24,489 nt of DNA, taken from the IMG/VR virus record IMGVR_UViG_2778261570_000027. One strand, given 5' to 3'. Shown one piece after another: positions 2,833-14,946 of this stretch (position 1 is the stretch's first letter; each line of letters begins with the position of its first letter). This DNA comes from a virus. Lineage: Duplodnaviria; Heunggongvirae; Uroviricota; Caudoviricetes. The notes beneath the pieces were generated by a model. The model made no database searches. It saw only the letters and a program-made list of their open reading frames with translations, and was not told where the DNA came from. Both the position numbers and the translations under genes were made by a program.

Positions 2833-3429
2833 TTAATTCGAGACTATTGTACTTCTTATACAAGCAACCACTTCAATATCAGAAAATGCACATTCAAAGC
2901 TATTCTCTGCTGTTGTAATTTTAATCATTCCTTTAGGAAGCCTTGTGATTTTTCGAATGGAATAGGTTCCGTCGATATTGATTAACCAGTTTCCATCAAG
3001 TACTTCAGAAAATTTTTGATCACAAATGTATGTGACGAGTCCATCCTGAACAACAATTGGTGATGAAAGGTTTGCAGGAAGAAATGATGAATCGAAGACA
3101 TATGAACCGTCTTCAATCATTTTGCCTGCGGCAAGGCGAAACTTAACAAGCTCTTCTGTAGCTGCTGTCAGCGAGCTTTGCTTAAGGCCTTGTCCGGTAG
3201 TTAACCATTTGAGGGAGGTTCCTGTTTCAAGAGCACATTGGATTATCCAGTCAGCAGGAAATGTATCCCGCAAATACCTGTTCGCTAGTGTGCTTTTTGA
3301 TACTTCCAAGTGATCAGCTAAAGCCTGTCGTGTCGTAAAGCCATAGGCTTCGACTAATCGCTCAATCGCAGCCTTACCACCTTTATTGGGATTTATTTTG
3401 ATCTCACTTGGGTACTTTGATGTTGACAT
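2833..3429 (-). CDS. cI: 186 CI-like immunity repressor (198 aa)
   Basis: Divergent from apl/cII across a short switch region. Size matches 186 CI (~192 aa) rather than P2 C (99 aa). N-terminal DNA-binding-like region (GFTTRQALADHLEVSKSTLANR). Confidence 0.75.
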   Translation of the reverse strand: MSTSKYPSEIKINPNKGGKAAIERLVEAYGFTTRQALADHLEVSKSTLANRYLRDTFPADWIIQCALETGTSLKWLTTGQGLKQSSLTAATEELVKFRLAAGKMIEDGSYVFDSSFLPANLSSPIVVQDGLVTYICDQKFSEVLDGNWLINIDGTYSIRKITRLPKGMIKITTAENSFECAFSDIEVVACIRSTIVSN

Positions 3430-5352: not shown

Positions 5353-5579
5353 TGGCTGATGCAATGGATCTCGTACAGCAGCGCGTTGAAGAAGAACGCC
5401 AGCGCCATATCCGTGCAGCCCGTGCCAAATCACCGGGCGTGTCACGCGTACTTTGCATTGAATGTGAAGCGCCAATTCCGCCAGCACGACGCCGCGCCAT
5501 TCCGGGAGTGCAGCTTTGCATTACCTGTCAGGAAATCGCAGAACTGAAAGGCAAACATTACAACGGAGGTGCTGTATGA
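5352..5579 (+). CDS. TraR/DksA-family C4 zinc-finger protein (75 aa)
   Basis: CxxC ... CxxC motif (CIECEAPIPPARRRAIPGVQLCITC) in a ~75-aa protein, typical of phage TraR/DksA-like proteins. Translationally coupled to neighbours. Confidence 0.7.
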   Translation: MADAMDLVQQRVEEERQRHIRAARAKSPGVSRVLCIECEAPIPPARRRAIPGVQLCITCQEIAELKGKHYNGGAV

Positions 5580-6433
5580 GCACCATCCTGAAATGGGCGG
5601 GAAATAAAACCGCCATTATGCCAGAACTGAAAAAATACCTTCCTGCTGGCCCGCGACTGGTTGAACCTTTCGCGGGTTCCTGTGCTGTGATGATGGAAAC
5701 GGATTATCCCAGCTATCTGGTTGCGGATATTAATCCTGATTTAATCAACCTCTATAAAAAGGTTGCCGCTGATTGTGAATCGTTTATATCTCGCGCCAGA
5801 GTTTTATTTGAGATCGCAAACAGGGAGGTGGCTTATTACAACATAAGGCAGGAGTTTAACTGCTCAACTGAAATTACTGATTTCATGAAAGCGGTATATT
5901 TCCTGTATCTCAATCGTCACGGTTACCGTGGTTTATGTCGCTATAACAAGAGCGGGCATTTCAACATTCCCTACGGTAATTATAAAAATCCGTATTTCCC
6001 TGAAAAAGAACTTCGCACATTTGCAGAAAAAGCCCAGCGAGCAACGTTTATCTGCGCCAGCTTTGATGAAACGCTGGCGATGTTGAAGGCGGGAGATGTG
6101 GTGTATTGCGATCCGCCATATGACGGTACGTTTTCCGGCTATCACACTGATGGTTTCACTGAAGATGACCAGTATCACCTGGCATCCGTTCTTGAACATC
6201 GGTCATCAGAAGGACATCCGGTCATTGTTTCTAACAGTGACACATCCCTGATCCGTTCGCTGTATCGCAATTTTACTCACCACTATATCAAGGTAAAACG
6301 CAGCATCGGTGTGGCAGCTGGCGAGGGTAAATCAGCAACAGAAATCATTGCTGTTTCCGGGCCGCGCTGCTGGATGGGATTTGATTATTCGCGTGGCGTG
6401 GATAGTTCTGCCGTGTACGGAGTACGTGCATGA
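5576..6433 (+). CDS. dam: Dam-family DNA N6-adenine methyltransferase (285 aa), orphan (no cognate nuclease seen)
   Basis: Strong resemblance to E. coli Dam as I recall it: [42 protein letters not shown] and the DPPY catalytic motif ([10 protein letters not shown]). ATGA overlaps with both neighbours. Confidence 0.88.
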
Positions 6434-8844
6434 GTCATGCCGATATGAACAACTGCTGCGGCTTTAACGAGGCTGCCGCAGCATTCTCATGGAACAGCCC
6501 GAAAAAGGCCATTAACCCTTATCTGGACCCGGCGGAAGTTGCGCCGGTTTCTACGCTTTCAAACCTGATCACTCTGTACGCTGCCGATAACGAGCAGGAA
6601 CAGTTGCGCCGCGAGGCACTGAGTGATCAGGTCTGGGAGCGTTATTTCTTTAATGAATCACGTGATCCTGTCCAGCGCGAAATGGAGCAGGATAAGCTCA
6701 TTAGCCGGGCAAAGCTGGCGCATGAGCAGCAGCGTTTTAATTCAGACATGGTCATTCTGGCGGACGTCAACGCCCAGCCTTCCCATATCAGCAAGCCGCT
6801 GATGCAACGTATTGAATACTTCAGCAGCCTGGGCAGGCCAAAGGCTTATTCCCGCTATTTACGTGAGACGATTAAGCCATGTCTGGAACGACTGGAGCAT
6901 GTACGCGACAGTCAGCTATCTGCATCTTTTCGCTTTATGGCAAGCCATGAAGGGCTGGACGGCCTGCTGATCCTGCCTGAAATGAGTCAGGATCAGGTGA
7001 AACGCCTGTCCACCCTGGTAGCTGCGCATATGAGTATGTGCCTTGATGCAGCTTGTGGTGATTTGTATGCCACCGATGACGTTAAGCCAGAAGAAATCCG
7101 CAAGACATGGGAAAAGGTGGCAGCGGAAACCCTGCGTCTGGATGTCATCCCACCTGCGTTTGAGCAACTCCGTCGGAAAAGAAACCGCCGTAAACCCGTG
7201 CCGTATGAACTCATTCCGGGTTCGCTGGCGCGTATGTTGTGCGCCGACTGGTGGTATCGGAAATTATGGAAGATGCGTTGCGAATGGCGGGAAGAGCAGT
7301 TGCGCGCTGTTTGCCTGGTCAGCAAAAAAGCATCTCCTTATGTCAGCTATGAAGCCGTGATGCATAAACGTGAGCAGCGCCGTAAGTCGCTGGAGTTTTT
7401 CCGTTCTCATGAACTGGTGAACGAAGACGGCGACACGCTGGACATGGAGGATGTGGTAAACGCCAGCAGCAGCAACCCTGCGCATCGCCGCAATGAGATG
7501 ATGGCCTGTGTTAAAGGTCTGGAGCTTATCGCGGAAATGCGCGGTGACTGCGCCGTTTTCTACACTATCACCTGTCCGTCGCGTTTCCATTCCACGCTAA
7601 ATAACGGCAGACCAAACCCGACCTGGACAAACGCGACGGTAAGACAAAGCAGCGATTATCTGGTCGGCATGTTTGCTGCATTTCGTAAGGCGATGCACAA
7701 AGCCGGGTTGCGCTGGTATGGCGTGCGGGTGGCTGAGCCGCATCATGATGGCACAGTTCACTGGCACCTGTTGTGTTTCATGCGCAAAAAAGACCGCCGT
7801 GCCATCACTGCATTACTGCGTAAGTTTGCCATCCGTGAAGACCGCGAGGAGCTGGGCAATAACACTGGGCCGCGCTTTAAGTCTGAGTTGATTAACCCGC
7901 GCAAAGGAACGCCGACAAGCTACATCGCGAAATATATCAGTAAGAACATTGACGGTCGTGGTCTGGCTGGCGAGATCAGCAAGGAAACGGGTAAATCTCT
8001 GCGTGATAACGCTGAATACGTGAATGCCTGGGCGTCTCTGCATCGTGTTCAGCAATTCCGCTTCTTTGGTATTCCGGGGCGTCAGGCTTACCGTGAACTT
8101 CGCTTGCTGGCTGGTCAGGCGGCAAGGCAACAGGGTGACAAAAAAGCAGGTGCGCCGGTACTGGATAACCCGCGTCTTGATGCCATTCTGGCTGCTGCTG
8201 ATGCTGGTTGTTTTGCCACCTACATCATGAAGCAGGGCGGCGTACTGGTTCCCCGTAAATATCACCTCATCAGAACCGCTTATGAAATCAACGAAGAGCC
8301 GACCGCCTATGGCGATCACGGCATTCGTATTTATGGCATCTGGTCACCCATTGCAGAGGGCAAGATCTGCACTCATGCAGTGAAGTGGAAAATGGTTCGT
8401 AAAGCCGTTGACGTTCAGGAGGCGGCAGCCGACCAGGGCGCTTGCGCCCCTTGGACTCGTGGCAATAACTGTCCCCTTGCTGAAAATTTGTACCAACAAG
8501 GGAAAGACAAATCAGCTGATGGGGATACCAGAACGGATATCACCCGCATGGATGACAAGGAATTGCACGATTACCTGCACAGTATGAACAAAAAAGAGCG
8601 TCGGGAACTGGCTGCAAGGTTACGCCTGGTGAAACCGAAACGGCGTAGAGACTACAAACAGCGAATTACAGATCATCAGCGACAGCAGCTCGTCTATGAA
8701 CTGAAGTCCAGAGGATTTGATGGCAGCGAGAAAGAGGTCGATTTACTCCTTCGCGGCGGCAGCATTCCGTCAGGAGCAGGCCTGCGTATTTTCTATCGGA
8801 ACCAGCGTTTGCAGGAAGATGATAAGTGGCGGAACCTGTATTAA
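6430..8844 (+). CDS. A: P2/186 gpA-type rolling-circle replication initiation endonuclease (804 aa)
   Basis: Very large last gene of the early operon, in the position and size range of P2 gene A (761 aa). ATG overlaps the dam stop (ATGA). Contains a region reminiscent of the RCR metal-binding motif (HWHLLCF). Confidence 0.8.
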
Positions 8845-8936
8845 TTACGCGGGTTAACAATTCGTGCTCTTAATAATACCAGGTATATCAGGCTGATGAA
8901 CGTAAAAAAACGTTTTACATCAGTAAGATTATTATA

Positions 8937-8956
8937 TACTGTAAATATAAACAGTG
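8937..8956 (+). promoter_or_regulatory. LexA (SOS) box TACTGTAAATATAAACAGTG
   Basis: CTGT-N8-ACAG core at 8939-8954 with an AT-rich spacer, matching the consensus TACTGTATATATATACAGTA. Located ~45 nt upstream of the next gene in an AT-rich promoter-like region. Confidence 0.6.
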
Positions 8957-8997
8957 CTTATATATACAGTATTGCTTGTGGTGTCATAGGAGGAAAG

Positions 8998-9186
8998 ATG
9001 CAGGACTATTTTTTGGAGTCTTTGAAGCTCCAGCGCATTGATTTTTTTCTTAAGCTTGTAGCGGCTAGTGAGTGTAGTGATGAAGAGAAGGGGCTGGCCC
9101 TGCAGTGGGTTTCTGAACTGACAGATGAACTCATGGCAAAAATCAGAACCCACGAATACAACCGCTCAATGGATGTCATCAGCTGA
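8998..9186 (+). CDS. Small SOS-operon protein (62 aa); possibly the N-terminal part of a Tum-like antirepressor
   Basis: ATG 8998 with a strong SD (GGAGGAAAG) directly upstream and downstream of the LexA box. The longer ORF-track start (8896) would run through the LexA box and lacks an SD. Confidence 0.45.
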   Translation: MQDYFLESLKLQRIDFFLKLVAASECSDEEKGLALQWVSELTDELMAKIRTHEYNRSMDVIS

Positions 9187-9196
9187 GGTGACTTTT

Positions 9197-9430
9197 ATGC
9201 GCATTGAAATAATGATCGATAAAGAGCAGAAGATTAGCCAGTCTACCCTGGACGCCCTTGAATCCGAGCTTTACCGCAATCTGCGCCCCCTGTATCCCAA
9301 AACGGTAATTCGCATTCGCAAAGGTAGCTCTAACGGTGTGGAACTGACCGGACTGCAACTGGACGAAGAAAGGAAGCAAGTGATGAAAATTATGCAGAAG
9401 GTGTGGGAAGACGACAGCTGGCTGCATTAA
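9197..9430 (+). CDS. DinI-family protein (77 aa)
   Basis: MRIEIMIDKEQ... aligns by eye with E. coli DinI (MRIEVTIAKT...), including a Trp-containing acidic motif (WEDDSW) near the C-terminus. ATG 9197 lies 10 nt after the previous stop and is under the LexA box. Confidence 0.7.
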   Translation: MRIEIMIDKEQKISQSTLDALESELYRNLRPLYPKTVIRIRKGSSNGVELTGLQLDEERKQVMKIMQKVWEDDSWLH

Positions 9431-9717
9431 GAAACGTTGCCCCCAAGAGGATTCATTCTGATGGGGGACTATTTTGGGCAACGAGTGAAACGAGGCGTTA
9501 GGTGGACGGCCATTTTGATAAGTGATCGTCCGCTTTTTGTTCTGAGTTCAAGCGATGGATTTAACACACTGGTTGAAGCAGAAGTATCTAAGTTCAATTT
9601 ATATTATTTGAAGGGCACTGGTCTGATGTAGTACGATTTTTGCCGGAGATGGCATGTTCTATATTGATCTCATCCATATAATGATTGGTATTATTAGCTT
9701 AGTTTAAAGAGGATTGA

Positions 9718-11295
9718 ATGGATATCAACTATGTTGTTTCAAAAATGGGGTTCGTAGATGATCTTATTAATGCAGGTTCATTTGATTCTGCCTATAAAAA
9801 TGTAAAGGATATTCTTAACGGTACCGATGAGATAAATACAATCAAAGAAAATAGAATAATTATATTATCTAATTTGGCCGGAAATCTTATTGATATCGGA
9901 AGTTTTAGTAATGTAAAAAATATAGCGGAGGAAGGCTTAAATATCTTTATAAACAATAAAAATGAATTTCTGACTATAATGAAAGAATCCTTATATTACT
10001 ATAACTTGGCAAATGGAATGAGCGCAGTTCTTGATTTTAATCCTAATGACAATGCAGATATTGATAGTTTCATTAAGCTGAATGATGTAAAAAATAATTA
10101 CTGGAAAGCGTTTAAACTTTCACAAGAAGATGGATGGGTGCCCCCTGATTTAATAGTTAATCTAGCTAATGTATTAAAAAAACAATATCGTATATCTGAA
10201 TCAATGGATTATTATGAACAAGCAATATCTATTGATAACTCAATTCCTCAGGCGTGGGTAAACAGATCTGAGGCATTAGAATTGCTTAATGAATTATCTA
10301 CAACATATACATATAAAATGATTAAAGAAGTTATTCGAGGTTATGAGTGTGCAATAAAGTCAGGGAAATGTTTTCCTTCATGGAAGGTTGCTCTTCAAAG
10401 AAAAATAAAGTACAACGAAAGTATATTGAGTGAATCATGTGTATATGGCATAGAGGATATAAGTACAGATGAAAGGCTCACGCAGGAGGAGTATGATACT
10501 TTATCAAACTACCAGAGGTTTTGTATAGATAATAATCTAATGTTGTCTGATCATTCGCTATATTGCAATTGTTATGCGTCATCTAAAGATAATATAACTA
10601 TTGCTACCACCGAGGAAGGTGTGTTTGGTGATTTTATAGTGCCAATGGAAATGGTGTTAAATAGACTTAAAGCTGAGTATTCCTTAGCACGAAAAATGTT
10701 TTTTGAATATAAGGTTGATAGTGAGTTTTTTGATGAGGATTCGGAGGTATGTTATTCTGAATTGTATAATGGAGAAATATTGTATGAAAATGTTGAGAAG
10801 TTAAGGGTTGCATTTAGAGCTTGCTTTGGTATCTTGGATAAAATAGCAGTTGCTCTGTGTCAATTATTTGATTTAAAACCAGATAGAGGACATATATACT
10901 TTCATAACTTCTGGCGGATTAGTGATGAAAAAAGAAAGCTTAAAATAAACAAAATAAATAATAAAGGATTGCTGGGTTTGTTTAGTATTGCTATGGATTT
11001 GAATGATAAAAATGGTGAGCTTGCTTTTTTTAAAGAATGGAGGAATGATTTAGAACATAAACTGTTAGTTATTCACGAGAAAGACATGTTAGTTGATTTA
11101 TATAATTCTTATGGGTTTTTTGATGAGGTGAGGTTTATTGAGAAAGAAAAGTTTGAGAAACAGCTCTTACAACTCATGAAAATTGTGAGATCAGCCGTTA
11201 TTCTTTTTGTGTTTACCATACGTATAGAGGGGAAAAAAAGTATTCCTAAAGATATGTTGACCATTAAAAATACCATCGAGAGAAAAGTATTGTAG
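9718..11295 (+). CDS. Cargo protein (525 aa) with TPR-like N-terminal region and C-terminal Rx4H HEPN-type motif; candidate abortive-infection or defence RNase
   Basis: Uninterrupted 1.58-kb ORF with SD AAAGAGGA (9706-9713) and a perfect TATAAT at 9677-9682. Strikingly AT-rich versus the flanking phage genes. R-N-D-L-E-H at aa 442-447 (nt 11041-11058) fits the HEPN Rx4-6H motif. Sits between gene A/SOS operon and cos, the P2 tin/old position. Confidence 0.7.
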   Translation: MDINYVVSKMGFVDDLINAGSFDSAYKNVKDILNGTDEINTIKENRIIILSNLAGNLIDIGSFSNVKNIAEEGLNIFINNKNEFLTIMKESLYYYNLANGMSAVLDFNPNDNADIDSFIKLNDVKNNYWKAFKLSQEDGWVPPDLIVNLANVLKKQYRISESMDYYEQAISIDNSIPQAWVNRSEALELLNELSTTYTYKMIKEVIRGYECAIKSGKCFPSWKVALQRKIKYNESILSESCVYGIEDISTDERLTQEEYDTLSNYQRFCIDNNLMLSDHSLYCNCYASSKDNITIATTEEGVFGDFIVPMEMVLNRLKAEYSLARKMFFEYKVDSEFFDEDSEVCYSELYNGEILYENVEKLRVAFRACFGILDKIAVALCQLFDLKPDRGHIYFHNFWRISDEKRKLKINKINNKGLLGLFSIAMDLNDKNGELAFFKEWRNDLEHKLLVIHEKDMLVDLYNSYGFFDEVRFIEKEKFEKQLLQLMKIVRSAVILFVFTIRIEGKKSIPKDMLTIKNTIERKVL

Positions 11296-11302
11296 TATAT
11301 TT

Positions 11303-11335
11303 TCATCGAGCGATGAAACGGTCTGTTTTTCTTTA
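11303..11335 (+). terminator. Weak candidate terminator after the 525-aa gene (short hairpin TTCATC-gagc-GATGAA followed by a T-rich tract)
   Basis: Seen by eye only: AT-rich 6-bp stem, then GTCTGTTTTTCTTT. Confidence 0.3.
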
Positions 11336-11617
11336 TAGTTTTGTCATAAAAAAGAGATTTCCTGCTTAAAATTTGGCTATTACAGAGCAACTATGTATGT
11401 TCCTCGCTCACAGTAGAGCTTCATCTTTGTAAGTCTGTATGTTTCGTTTTTCAAGTGGTCATTCAGATACGGACTTTCACTTCTCTTAGACAGTGCATGA
11501 CTATGCTGCATGAAATCGCATGATCGTTTAAGGATCGTTTTTGCTAAGGCTCGCCAGAACTAGCGGGCTTTTACGTAGAACATGCAGGTGCATGAAAACC
11601 ACTACATAAAGCGGGCA

Positions 11618-11815: not shown

Positions 11816-12109
11816 ATGAAAACCATATACAACTATGACTTTCAATACTTACGTAAAGGGGATACGCGACCTCTTGATGATGGAGAGATTGTAAGATGTT
11901 CTTCGGAAGACAATCCACTCCTGATGCTTCCGAATGTTGGGGATTATGTCGACATTACCAACAATAAAGACCGTGAGTCGTTTGGTGGGAAAGTGAAATC
12001 AAGGTTATTCAGATATACTCGAGTAAGTGAAGACCATGTTATTTGCAACATCAATATTGTTGTTGAAGAGGTTGAAGACTCGGTATGGGGCACACTTGTT
12101 AAAGAGTAA
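11816..12109 (+). CDS. Hypothetical 97-aa moron protein between cos and Q
   Basis: ATG 11816 with SD AAAGGA 5-6 nt upstream, followed immediately by a strong hairpin terminator. Lower GC than the late genes. No domain recognised. Confidence 0.5.
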   Translation: MKTIYNYDFQYLRKGDTRPLDDGEIVRCSSEDNPLLMLPNVGDYVDITNNKDRESFGGKVKSRLFRYTRVSEDHVICNINIVVEEVEDSVWGTLVKE

Positions 12110-12154: not shown

Positions 12155-13183
12155 CTAATACATATAAGGTTCGAAGCGAATTATTTCTTCGCCCAGCCAG
12201 TCGTTAAGCTCCTGCAGTCGCTTCTGTAACGGCATCAGTTCGTTGCGGACAAAGACGCGGCTGGCTTTTTCAACATCACCAAATCCCCCAACATTACTCG
12301 GCATGATTCCCATCATTTGTGGCGGTACACGGTGCGCAGCCATCATGTCATCGCGGCTGACATTTTTGATATTCAGAAACTCATCCTTCGCCGCGACTTC
12401 TGACAACGGGATGATCTGAAGCCCGTCCTTTTTGCCGTTAGGCGAGTACATGAACAGATTGCGGAAGTTACCTGGTCCTTTGGCACTTTTCATCGCATTG
12501 CGAAGGTTGTTCACGTCCTCCTGGTTCTGCGCGGCATCGGTCATGTACATGATGAAGCCTGCATGACTGCCGTTAATGTAATACTTACGGCGGAACAGCG
12601 TGGCGGACTCGTTGAGCAGGGCTGACGGAATGGCAGAAAGATAACCTGGCAGGCCGTAGATCTCCTGGTTGATGTCCGGTTCCATCAGATGAAAAATGCT
12701 GCCTTTCGTGAACTGATACGGCTGGGTTGTCATACCGTATTGCACAAACCAGTAGGTATCCAGGTCTAACCCGCGTCGGGTGTATTTTGCCAGAGCAGGC
12801 TCAAGGGCGATAACTTCACCGAAACGGTTCGTGCGTTTCTCCAGGTAGGCGTTACCAAAAACCAGATAGTCCTGTACAAAACGCGAAAAAGCCTGCTGGC
12901 TGAGCAGCGGGTGAGGGATGTAGGTGCTGGTCAGAATGTTGCACTTCACTGCAATCGGTGAGCTGTGATGCACGGCGGCGCGGAAAGTTCGCGCCAGTCC
13001 GTCGAAACTCACAGGCGGCTCATACCAACGATCCATCTGTACGCATTCCACATAGTCCAGCAGTTCGCGGCGGTCCAGAACAGGAACGGGATCACCGAAG
13101 CTGAATGCTTCGGCTGAAGTCTGGCCTTTATGCTGGATCTGTTTCGTCGACGCAGCGCGGTTCTTCTTACTCTTTCCCATCAA
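12155..13183 (-). CDS. Q: Portal protein, P2 gpQ homologue (342 aa)
   Basis: Size and position (last gene of the leftward P-Q operon, next to cos) match P2 Q (344 aa). Start overlaps the P stop. Confidence 0.85.
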   Translation of the reverse strand: MMGKSKKNRAASTKQIQHKGQTSAEAFSFGDPVPVLDRRELLDYVECVQMDRWYEPPVSFDGLARTFRAAVHHSSPIAVKCNILTSTYIPHPLLSQQAFSRFVQDYLVFGNAYLEKRTNRFGEVIALEPALAKYTRRGLDLDTYWFVQYGMTTQPYQFTKGSIFHLMEPDINQEIYGLPGYLSAIPSALLNESATLFRRKYYINGSHAGFIMYMTDAAQNQEDVNNLRNAMKSAKGPGNFRNLFMYSPNGKKDGLQIIPLSEVAAKDEFLNIKNVSRDDMMAAHRVPPQMMGIMPSNVGGFGDVEKASRVFVRNELMPLQKRLQELNDWLGEEIIRFEPYMY

Positions 13184-14946
13184 AAAATCTCCACAATATT
13201 GCTGGTATTGGCGGACTCGCCCTGCAGTGGTTCGTTAAACAGTGCGTGCATTGTTGCCCAGGCCAGATCGGCATGGCTGGCTTCTTCGCTGCGGCTGGCT
13301 TCATAGGTCGGGCGGTTGCCACTGGCAGTGGTAGCGCGACGGATTGCCATAAATGACTGCGCAATGTCGGTGTGCCCGGCGTCAAACTCCAGACGGCGGT
13401 GGCTGATAATGTCGTAGGCCTTGAGTACCAGGGCGTTTTTAACGTTGGGGTTGTAGACAAACTCCCGGACGGCAGGAAAGAACGCTTTCACGTTCTCGTA
13501 AACCCCGTGACCAACGCCGGTTGAGTCGATTCCGATATAAGTCACGTTGTACTGTTCGGTAAGTTTTTTGATGGCGTCAGCCTGGGCGCGGAAGTCCATC
13601 CCGCGCCACTGGTGACGCTCAAGAATGCGGAACTTACCACCCGGCACGGCTGGCGGTGCCACCACTACGCATCCGGCGCTGTCGCCGTTTTGCGTACCTT
13701 TTGCCGGGTCATAACCGATCCACACTTCGCGCCAGCCAAACGGGCGCAGCGCCAGTGCATGAAAGTCGGTCCAGACTTCCCAACTGTCCACCATGCACGC
13801 CTGCAGCTCGCTGAGCGGAAACACGGACGCGAGATCGTCCACAAACTCGCACATCAGCAGGTTCTGGTATTCGTCTGGGCTGTACTCCATGCGTAGCTGG
13901 TCGAGGTCGAACAGGTTACAGCCGCCGCGCACCGCATCTTCCACGGTGACTATCTGGCGGTATTGCCCGTCTGCGCACAGCAGGCCGGGGGCCAGATTGC
14001 TGTGGGACAGGTCGATGTCCACCTTATCGGTTTTGTTGCGCCCACGGTTAAACAGCGCACCGGACCAGAACGGATAAGCACTGTGTGTCAGGCTGGATGG
14101 CGTGGAAAAATAGGTTTGTCGCCATTTTTTGTGAATAGCCATACCGGAAGCCACCTTGCGCAGCTCCTGGAATTTCGGTATCCAGAAATATTCATCCAGA
14201 TACAGGTTGCCGTGGTAACTCTGGGCCGTGCGGGCATTGGTGCCGAGGAAGTAAAGCGTGGCCCCGTTGGGAAGCACCATCGGATCGCCTTTCAGCTCCA
14301 CCTCCACTTCTTTGGCGAAGTCGATGATGTACTGTTTAAAGACGTGGGCCTGTGCCTTACTGGCGGAAAGGAAAATCTGGTTACGTCCGGTAAGCAGGGC
14401 GTCAATCAGGGCTTCACGGGCAAAGTAAAAGGTCGCGCCGATCTGGCGTGACTTCAGCAGGTTGCGGATGCGGTTGGTTTTTCCGGCTTCCCACCAGTGG
14501 CGCTGGTAGTTGAACATGGAGGAATGGAAGATTTCTTCCAGCTTCTCAATCTGTTCATCGGTGAAAACGTTCTTTTCCGGCTGACGACGCGGGCCTTTGT
14601 TGCGGTTGGCGACGTTAGGGTTTAAGTCGGCTTCGTTGCCGCCATTGTTAAACTTGCCGATCCGCGCGTGGCGCTCCGACTGGCGCGCCAGCAGGTCAAT
14701 CTCTTTGAAATCTTTCCCTTCTTTGTGCTCCTTCATAATGAGCTGGCAGTAGCGTGCGGCGGTGGTGAGCTGCATCTGATCCAGCGGCCCATAGTCACCC
14801 CACTTGTCGCGTTTTTTCCAGCTGTGAACGGTTGCAACTTTCTCGCCCAGCATTTCAGCAATGCGGGCTACGCGGTATCCCTGAAAGTACAGCAGCATGG
14901 CCTGCCGACGGGGATCGAGATCTGCGGGTGTCAGTGTGGTGTTCAT
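13180..14946 (-). CDS. P: Terminase large (ATPase) subunit, P2 gpP homologue (588 aa)
   Basis: Size matches P2 P (590 aa). Divergent from O across a short late-promoter region, as in P2. Confidence 0.85.
   Translation of the reverse strand: MNTTLTPADLDPRRQAMLLYFQGYRVARIAEMLGEKVATVHSWKKRDKWGDYGPLDQMQLTTAARYCQLIMKEHKEGKDFKEIDLLARQSERHARIGKFNNGGNEADLNPNVANRNKGPRRQPEKNVFTDEQIEKLEEIFHSSMFNYQRHWWEAGKTNRIRNLLKSRQIGATFYFAREALIDALLTGRNQIFLSASKAQAHVFKQYIIDFAKEVEVELKGDPMVLPNGATLYFLGTNARTAQSYHGNLYLDEYFWIPKFQELRKVASGMAIHKKWRQTYFSTPSSLTHSAYPFWSGALFNRGRNKTDKVDIDLSHSNLAPGLLCADGQYRQIVTVEDAVRGGCNLFDLDQLRMEYSPDEYQNLLMCEFVDDLASVFPLSELQACMVDSWEVWTDFHALALRPFGWREVWIGYDPAKGTQNGDSAGCVVVAPPAVPGGKFRILERHQWRGMDFRAQADAIKKLTEQYNVTYIGIDSTGVGHGVYENVKAFFPAVREFVYNPNVKNALVLKAYDIISHRRLEFDAGHTDIAQSFMAIRRATTASGNRPTYEASRSEEASHADLAWATMHALFNEPLQGESANTSNIVEIF

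Follow-up and report, generated by a model that had tools for sequence, protein, structure and literature searches.

The 525-aa protein encoded at positions 9718..11295 (+) of the window (the whole stretch of DNA that was analysed, 24,489 nucleotides) joins a TPR-like N-terminal half to a HEPN domain of the LA2681-like family, and it probably constitutes a one-polypeptide sensor-effector defence, in which an endoRNase triggered by phage would arrest translation. Its host element is a 186-type P2-family prophage, in which the gene is mobile cargo. The open reading frame is intact and starts with ATG, and its AT-richness, pointed out in an earlier note on this DNA, is evident from a GC fraction of 0.31, as compared with 0.48 for the upstream DinI-like gene and 0.52-0.60 for the structural genes. 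Its product matches cluster P0001, a group of 261 member sequences, with 100% identity, and the frame is unbroken in all of these members and in 11 of the 11 E. coli genomes having the gene.

The HEPN character of the C-terminal region, proposed earlier from a short motif, is borne out by a profile search and by the predicted structure. The Pfam profile of the LA2681-like HEPN family (PF18733, HEPN_LA2681) matches with E=1.8e-38 and 132.4 bits, the gathering score being 27, and residues 309-504 align to profile positions 9-204 of 204, namely the whole domain. The C-terminal half is predicted to fold as an all-alpha, up-down helical bundle of the HEPN type; the domain itself, aa 307-507 (10636..11238, +), is composed of long helices with a small beta-hairpin insert. 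The motif R442-N-D-L-E-H447 (residues 442-447; 11041..11058, +), which had been read as Rx4-6H, lies where it was reported and is the predicted catalytic Rx4H motif. R442, N443, E446, and H447 are invariant across 105 homologues with identity down to 36%, and are retained in 54-56 of the 58 genome loci; three of the loci without the Rx4H residues (L038, L062, and L080) are frameshifted pseudogenes. Over a range of 36-100% identity, the Rx4H residues and some 40 further positions do not vary, which points to purifying selection on an active site. The domain is predicted to be a metal-independent endoribonuclease. Decayed copies of the gene occur in Arsenophonus endosymbionts and in Enterobacter sp. 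EA-1.

Directly ahead of the HEPN core is a family-specific segment, aa 276-306 (10543..10635, +), which is outside the Pfam match (aa 309-504) and is modelled as an ordered coil with pLDDT of 81-95. Five of its residues (L276, Y282, C283, C285, and D291) are invariant and two (S277 and H279) almost so, with H279, C283, and C285 making up a conserved H-x3-C-x-C; these positions are invariant or at least 90% conserved in the 105 homologues and are kept in 53-54 of the 58 genome loci. The N-terminal part, aa 3-271 (9724..10530, +), is predicted to form a TPR-like alpha-solenoid of about 13 helices built from helix-turn-helix hairpins, and is presumed to be the sensor or regulatory domain. The single sequence reveals one repeat: sub-threshold Pfam matches to TPR_10, TPR_8, and TPR_2 (E 1e-3 to 7e-3) include none that reaches the curated threshold, the best being TPR_10 with 19.3 bits against 27.5, and the sole sequence-recognisable motif, below the gathering score, is at aa 145-178 (10150..10251, +). 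The family profile, when compared with consensus TPR and OGT TPR chains, matches at positions 127-197 with E down to 1.4e-22. Together with the predicted fold, this supports a solenoid of the TPR type, in agreement with the helical repeats suggested earlier for this half, among them YYEQAISIDNSIPQAWVNRSEALELL (residues 165-190). An N-terminal TPR fusion is typical of the LA2681-like family, and the 525-aa protein has it.

The earlier note did not recognise the protein as any named system, but it belongs to the LA2681-like HEPN family and is also named in RefSeq. The TPR fusion of this family was tabulated in 2013 (Anantharaman et al., PMC3710099), and the exact accession of the protein has 14 entries in the P2-hotspot table of Rousset 2022 (Table S5, PMC9122126). 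It is absent from the eight additional P2-hotspot systems cloned by Rousset et al. (PMC9122126). The constructs called "HEPN-TPR" (pFR83) and "Putative HEPN" (pFR103) in that work were considered as the same protein and rejected, as BLASTP shows no similarity. Those two sequence-unrelated HEPN candidates of the P2/P4 hotspots gave no protection on the 8-phage panel of Rousset, so that a HEPN domain in this slot is no guarantee of a phenotype. The literature search found no published experiment on any LA2681 family member, and DefensePredictor rates one member as a predicted defence gene. Among the defence and candidate models of PADLOC-DB v2.0.0 there was no significant match, the only returns being a generic TPR model, weakly matched (E=5e-4), and Csx1/Csm6 (E=0.08), and NCBIfam and PHROGs gave nothing useful for this protein. 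An anti-phage or abortive-infection activity of the gene is an inference.

As to its context, the gene lies in the gpA-gpQ hotspot, the site of old and tin in P2 (PMC9122126). The gene order from gpA to cos confirms the equivalence of the slot that had been claimed: gpA (6430-8844), a 62-aa ORF, and the DinI-like gene (9197-9430) precede the TPR-HEPN gene, and a cos-like GGCGTGGCGGGG (about 11618) and the portal/terminase genes (12155-14946, minus strand) follow it. A perfect CTGTAAATATAAACAG at 8939-8954 is the LexA box controlling the orf62/DinI-like operon. Since this operon lies 288 nt upstream on the same strand, SOS readthrough into the TPR-HEPN gene is possible. A survey of relatives, which the earlier note had called for, showed a variable hotspot rather than an invariant position. 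The TPR-HEPN gene occupies the slot in 11 of the 1277 E. coli genomes matching it, and in an E. coli prophage that has an HNH-endonuclease gene in its place, the alignment with the window breaks off after 9440 and resumes at 11495, which delimits the variable segment to 9441..11494.

In a Yersinia enterocolitica island, the homology with the window DNA is 85.5% over 9637-11423, that is, over the gene, the non-coding region upstream (9637..9717, +), and a non-coding tail downstream (11296..11423, +). The upstream region contains a weak hairpin (9641-9654), a TATAAT -10 element (9677-9682), and a GAGG Shine-Dalgarno sequence (SD) at 9709-9712, 5 nt ahead of the ATG. Both the SD and the perfect TATAAT claimed for this gene are therefore present, but a full sigma-70 promoter is not supported: no acceptable -35 was found for this TATAAT, and a consensus promoter scan made no call at the site, with 11 promoter-like sites in the region as against 12.1 expected from shuffles. 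In DNA of 31% GC, a TATAAT alone is not significant; it is given weight here because CATATAATGAT and the SD are conserved in the 85%-identical copy at the unrelated Yersinia locus, and both are unchanged in a three-way alignment. In the downstream tail no sequence makes a convincing intrinsic terminator, and the structure is not out of the ordinary (z = -0.43); folding of the non-coding DNA on the two sides gave no structure above shuffled controls, and an Rfam search of the whole window returned zero RNA families. In these alignments, the gene behaves as a single-gene cassette that moves as a promoter-plus-gene unit.

In the mechanism that we infer for trigger, substrate, oligomeric state, and TPR autoinhibition, the TPR domain would hold the RNase inactive in the lysogen. 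A cue from the infection would then release or dimerise the HEPN domains and thereby compose an Rx4H active site; the likeliest cue is a phage protein or peptide that binds in the TPR groove. The activated enzyme would cut tRNA or other translation RNAs to leave 2′,3′-cyclic phosphate and 5′-OH ends, and the resulting halt of translation would make the infecting phage fail, in the manner of abortive infection or of a growth arrest. Host rtc may be able to reverse this arrest, because the cleaved ends are substrates of RtcB and a ligand of RtcR. If active, the gene would be a further prophage-borne defence, a compact sensor-RNase made by one gene, and would account for one of the many candidate entries in the P2-hotspot catalogue. 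Having a TPR sensor and a HEPN effector with no NTPase switch, it suits the study of nuclease gating by a repeat domain.

The relation to Rtc repair is open to more than one reading. In Moraxellaceae (Psychrobacter, Acinetobacter), homologues are embedded in rtcR-controlled rtcB-rtcA operons, and in a Chitinophagaceae/Bacteroidota genome one homologue adjoins rtcB; this recurrence ties a HEPN RNase to Rtc repair in a way that is concrete and can be tested. It is conceivable, though doubtful, that LA2681 TPR-HEPN proteins in general are widespread single-polypeptide immune sensors with an RNase output wired to Rtc repair, in which TPR recognition of phage would lead to cleavage of tRNA or other RNA, the fragments with their cyclic-phosphate ends would switch on RtcR, and later resealing of the RNA by RtcB would make the translational arrest reversible and non-suicidal. 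The link would be cis-encoded in Moraxellaceae and some Bacteroidota, and made in trans through rtcBA for the E. coli prophage copy. The same association could point to a housekeeping role in RNA damage rather than immunity. The enzyme would then be a stress RNase cutting damaged or surplus RNA in SOS or other stress together with RtcB/RtcA, and the prophage copy a solo version modulating host physiology or stabilising the prophage. The LexA-controlled operon upstream fits this idea, as does the finding in Salmonella that prophage-dependent cleavage of tRNA during SOS switches on rtc expression (PMC9879122). However, the window clade has no rtc neighbour and its copies are an AT-rich cargo that moves among prophages, ICEs, and islands; most characterised cargo of the gpA-gpQ slot is anti-phage; and fast evolution, as in the N-terminal repeat domain, is more characteristic of sensors under conflict. 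A mainly non-immune function is thus unlikely.

The position directly downstream of the early and SOS operons, in the same orientation and with only the weak hairpin in between, would also suit a lytic factor that is expressed by SOS-promoter readthrough after induction and degrades host or competitor RNA for the benefit of the prophage. Such a service to the phage is improbable, given a dispensable and variable slot that so rarely holds the gene, a conserved upstream region of its own that is kept in non-phage contexts, and homologues that sit in chromosomal, ICE, and rtc surroundings away from any phage. Many HEPN toxins require a partner, as HepT requires MntA, and the protein might accordingly be the toxin of a toxin-antitoxin or other two-gene system of which the second gene was missed. 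In the table of Rousset, the neighbours of the gene are AAA_15/21, KAP NTPase, or hypothetical genes, and in a sister clade (Citrobacter, Pantoea, Rahnella) a 1356-aa ORF lies 28-49 nt upstream on the same strand. Yet the window clade has no conserved partner gene, none is common to the clades examined, and the local candidates do not hold: a 56-aa ORF (9461-9631) was dropped as antitoxin because it is outside the unit shared with Yersinia, and the AAA ATPase gene that comes next in some E. coli genomes was dropped as partner because it is beyond cos and other genes replace it beside identical HEPN cassettes. Indeed, the genes after cos are an AAA ATPase in locus L001, a 97-aa ORF in the window, and another gene in L084, and the 97-aa ORF accompanies the HNH cassette as well. 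A missing partner is very unlikely on these grounds. The least probable reading has the protein as an inert passenger, or as a HEPN protein that binds RNA or protein but does not catalyse; there are HEPN families without catalytic activity (PMC3710099, Table 1), and the gene has decayed in Arsenophonus endosymbionts and in Enterobacter sp. EA-1, but the intact frames in the E. coli genomes and cluster members, and the invariance of the Rx4H and other positions noted above, speak for a functional enzyme.

Compared with known systems, the sensor-effector defence proposed here is a direct member of the LA2681-like HEPN family (PF18733), from which nothing structural sets it apart, and this family has been described computationally. 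With P2 old and tin and other gpA-gpQ cargo it shares the cos-proximal slot, AT-richness, variability, and expression signals of its own, whereas Old (an ATPase-Toprim nuclease) and Tin are unrelated to it in sequence and domains. It resembles the single-protein HEPN RNases of defence or abortive infection, namely ApeA, AbiD/AbiF/AbiJ, RnlA/LsoA, the anticodon nucleases PrrC/RloC, and the DS-11 CBS-HEPN protein, but its sensor module is made of a TPR solenoid where they have an ABC ATPase, CBS, or AbiJ-NTD, it has no significant match to these families in Pfam or PADLOC, and an antitoxin like RnlB or Dmd is absent from the locus. Unlike the HepT-MntA type VII toxin-antitoxin system, it is flanked by no MNT nucleotidyltransferase, either in the window or in any of 12 loci that were inspected, and it is four times larger than HepT and carries the TPR domain. 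It differs from the immune proteins with a TPR sensor (Avs/AVAST STAND NTPases and TPR-CHAT of type III-E CRISPR) in that no NTPase switch domain lies between its sensor and effector; its activation would therefore have to be direct. As to the rtcBA RNA-repair operon (Hughes et al. 2020, PMC7790460), distant homologues are its members or neighbours of rtcB and rtcA and the HEPN products match the RtcB substrates and the RtcR ligand, but for the window copy any coupling in E. coli would need to act in trans via the host operon.

The distribution of the gene, which has roughly 1,000 homologues, was followed further with tblastn, which detected no copy in 50,697 deposited phage genomes and, on plasmids, only distant copies (24-27% identity), on six plasmids. 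Among 146 flanking ORFs in 39 diverse genomes, known defence systems are not visibly dominant, and this survey, having no matched control, is unusable as an enrichment statistic for defence genes. Many of the homologue loci resemble ordinary chromosomal contexts.

The AT-rich gene in the gpA-to-cos interval (9718-11295, plus strand) encodes 525 aa from an ATG with GAGG 5 nt upstream, and its GC content is 0.31 against 0.48-0.60 in the surroundings. Its membership of the Pfam family HEPN_LA2681 (PF18733) is established by a match over residues 309-504 (E=1.8e-38, 132 bits vs a cut-off of 27), while Pfam TPR models match only residues 145-193, below threshold, and PADLOC v2, NCBIfam and PHROGs give no meaningful match. 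A database search yielded 189 homologues, nearly all of 510-550 aa with full-length coverage, at 70-85% identity in Enterobacter, Yersinia, Salmonella, Erwinia and Cronobacter and at about 40% in Vibrio, Pseudomonas, Cellvibrio, Polaromonas and others. When 1.84 billion representatives were scanned exhaustively, 1014 relatives reached E<=1e-3 and 121 reached E<=1e-30. Judged from these sequences, the family is modest in size but real, and its architecture is fixed.

Aligning 105 members, the most distant at 36% identity, leaves 42 invariant positions, including the catalytic motif R442, N443, E446 and H447 and the HEPN-helix residues E311, R316, E320, R325, E360, D374, R406 and D427. Both sets are kept in 53-56 of 58 loci sampled as one genome per species across Gamma- and Betaproteobacteria, Campylobacterota, Desulfobacterota, Bacteroidota, Ignavibacteria, Calditrichota, Acidobacteriota and others. 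Three of the copies without these residues (L038, L062 and L080, among the numbered loci compared with the window), from two Arsenophonus endosymbionts and one Enterobacter sp. EA-1, are frameshifted and carry 11-57 in-frame stops, and are therefore decaying pseudogenes. Outside the Pfam domain, just before the HEPN core, a family-specific segment (aa 276-306, window 10543-10635; L276, S277, H279, Y282, C283, C285, D291) matches the active site in conservation. Conservation of at least 90% at C345, C369 and C381 as well makes a metal site possible; the segment may alternatively be part of the substrate pocket.

An AlphaFold2 model built on the 105-sequence alignment is confident (mean pLDDT 88.7, pTM 0.90) and contains two folds: about 13 helices in hairpins (residues 3-271) and, after an ordered non-helical stretch (272-306), long helices with a small beta-hairpin (307-507). 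HEPN-type structures scored as follows: HepT 5yep (9.6), sacsin HEPN (9.2), 4nqf (9.1), 7ae2 (9.0), HI0074 (9.0), YutE (8.9), Csm6 and Csx1 (8.0), with LsoA (7.7), integron-cassette HEPN (7.3) and AbiA (7.1) lower; generic and designed four-helix bundles reach the same range, and the fold evidence therefore backs the profile evidence and cannot replace it. The earlier note had guessed at HEPN and TPR-like parts from sequence, and these structural guesses were good; its peptide strings are also exact, R442-H447 corresponding to nt 11041-11058 and the TPR-like string to residues 165-190. Divergence is greatest in the N-terminal 140 residues, with 28% identity vs 50% for the HEPN domain in distant members, a pattern that fits a recognition module.

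The window belongs to the P2 phage family and is of the 186 type; it is integrated beside a TetR-family gene and is 100% identical to contig NLMT01000030.1 of GCA_002228995.1 over the region compared. An integrase (1-1053, minus), an AT-rich 558-aa gene (1136-2812, minus) and a 186-type CI repressor (2833-3429, minus) are followed by CII, Fil, DUF2732 and TraR-like genes, a Dam-type methylase (5516-6433), the replication protein gpA (6430-8844), a 62-aa ORF and a DinI-like gene (9197-9430). Beyond the TPR-HEPN gene come the cos-like GGCGTGGCGGGG (~11618), a 97-aa ORF without family match (11816-12109, plus), portal (12155-13183, minus) and terminase (13180-14946, minus), and then the structural genes. 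The only perfect LexA-box match in the window (CTGTAAATATAAACAG, 8939-8954) lies directly upstream of the 62-aa ORF and DinI-like gene and points at the TPR-HEPN gene; these two genes resemble the antirepressor-type operon that is under SOS control in 186-like phages. Since that gene lies on the same strand, 288 nt downstream of this operon, SOS-driven readthrough is possible.

This gpA-gpQ, cos-proximal locus was defined as a hotspot by Rousset et al., with 1,650 arrangements among 18,150 loci; old and tin of P2 sit in it, and three new systems from it were validated (PMC9122126). Their locus table carries the protein WP_000354145 as HEPN_LA2681 in 14 entries with varying neighbours, and it is absent from their lists of cloned systems (PMC9122126). 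They cloned pFR83 'HEPN-TPR' (P4) and pFR103 (P2) and saw no activity (PMC9122126); the proteins of both have no similarity to the TPR-HEPN protein. An E. coli protein of the LA2681 family is among the novel defence genes predicted by DefensePredictor (log-odds 9.1), whose table of cloned systems has no LA2681 entry (PMC13092281). Full-text searches by family name, Pfam accession, protein accession and TPR-HEPN returned nothing further on the family. The protein, described earlier as not recognised as any named system, was thus already in public databases and supplementary tables as to family, architecture and hotspot presence.

Variability of the slot, which had been presumed from its position, is borne out: of 5426 complete E. 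coli genomes, 1277 have its flanks, and 11 of those 1277 have the TPR-HEPN gene. An E. coli prophage with an HNH endonuclease instead aligns to the window until 9440 and resumes at 11495, and the variable segment is therefore 9441-11494. Within it, the gene behaves as a cassette: an island of Yersinia enterocolitica, unconnected with any P2 prophage, has 9637-11423 in common with the window (85.5% identity), a stretch that takes in the gene with 81 bp before it and 128 bp after it. The TATAAT at 9677-9682, previously proposed as a promoter element, exists but lacks a usable -35 and is unreported by a consensus promoter scan, in which promoter-like sites are no more numerous than in shuffles of the region; its only real support is conservation, as CATATAATGAT and the ribosome-binding site are invariant inside the 81-bp part. 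After the stop codon, a non-coding block (GGCTATTACAGAGCAACTAT...GTTCCTCGCTCA, 11375-11412) is conserved between E. coli and Yersinia amid diverged surroundings; it has no Rfam match and no significant fold. A 56-aa ORF (9461-9631, plus, GC 0.43) between the DinI-like gene and the cassette recurs in gene-carrying E. coli prophage copies (L010, L011 and IMG/VR contigs L018-L020); it matches no family and lies outside the Yersinia-common unit.

Relatives are found on mobile or variable DNA of different types. One lies on a Cellvibrio ICE, where AbiEii/DUF6088, Fic-HTH, a HigBA-like pair and ArdA are its neighbours; others are in a Pseudomonas islet with PAAR-Ntox44 toxin, integrase and transposase, in a Vibrio locus that also has Mrr and a Cap4-type nuclease, in the Yersinia island with AbiEii, and on non-P2 prophage contigs near polyvalent MuF protein, Rha or baseplate genes. 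No partner is common to these loci, and the gene occurs in 0 of 50,697 deposited phage genomes. The TPR-HEPN gene product is best described as a putative sensor-fused HEPN RNase, of the kind carried as prophage defence cargo. In Citrobacter youngae, Moellerella, Pantoea, Rahnella, Phytobacter and one IMG/VR contig, a 1356-aa ORF without Pfam match lies 28-49 nt upstream on the same strand (L029, 3897-7970; L030, L032 and L035, 3882-7949; L066, 481-4548; L023, 2360-4663). These ORFs share 65-84% identity and may, with the HEPN homologue, form a two-gene variant of the system.

Distant members are linked to RNA repair. Among 146 flanking ORFs in 39 species-representative genomes, the commonest neighbour families are RtcA (RNA 3'-phosphate cyclase, 9 ORFs), RtcB (RNA ligase, 8), phage integrases (6) and RtcR (3). 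The order rtcB, TPR-HEPN, DUF6847 in some, and rtcA, all on one strand, is found in Psychrobacter (L043, L044, L046-L049, L053), two Acinetobacter species and one gammaproteobacterial MAG. Homologues embedded in these rtcR-controlled operons (L043-L050, L053, L069) match at ~8001-9600 in most. Gaps are short or none (9-114 nt where called neighbours abut the gene), and a divergent rtcR lies upstream wherever the contig extends that far. In an eighth Psychrobacter locus (L042), rtcB and rtcA were not detected, and DUF6847 and the downstream gene are kept. A Chitinophagaceae genome (Bacteroidota; L064, 591-3651) has the homologue followed by rtcB 13 nt later, differing in gene order and phylum from the Moraxellaceae arrangement. 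No catalytic residue is lost in any of the rtc-linked copies. In the window clade, neither rtc genes nor the 1356-aa ORF lie beside the gene, and a conserved partner is absent.

HEPN domains are metal-independent RNases (PMC3710099); such RNases make 2',3'-cyclic-phosphate ends resealable by RtcB, and RtcR is activated by tRNA halves with these ends (PMC7790460). The rtc linkage, together with this end chemistry, thus gives independent genomic support for RNA cutting by the family, and the damage could possibly be meant to be repairable. For the TPR-HEPN gene itself, phage-triggered RNase defence is moderately probable, and a role in stress or RNA damage takes most of the remaining probability. 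In phage-triggered defence, the TPR domain would hold the HEPN domain inactive until the TPR array binds a phage protein or peptide, which would either lift the inhibition or make the protein dimerise to form the composite active site usual for HEPN; cleavage of tRNA or other translation RNAs would then stop translation before phage completion. The rtcBA operon of an E. coli host could sense this damage and partly reverse it, and the rtc association offers a specific, testable hypothesis for the family.

Genes on the far side of cos were considered as partners and rejected, since they vary next to cassettes that are otherwise identical: L001 has a 671-aa AAA ATPase, L084 another small gene, and the window the 97-aa ORF, which also stands beside the unrelated HNH cassette. 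A second variable sub-slot seems to lie on the portal side of cos. Between integrase and CI repressor, the 558-aa gene (GC 0.35-0.39) has Pfam DUF4041 and T5orf172/MUG113 domains and matches PADLOC PD-Lambda-1 over nearly the whole profile (E=2.4e-120); a second prophage slot therefore holds a known defence gene.
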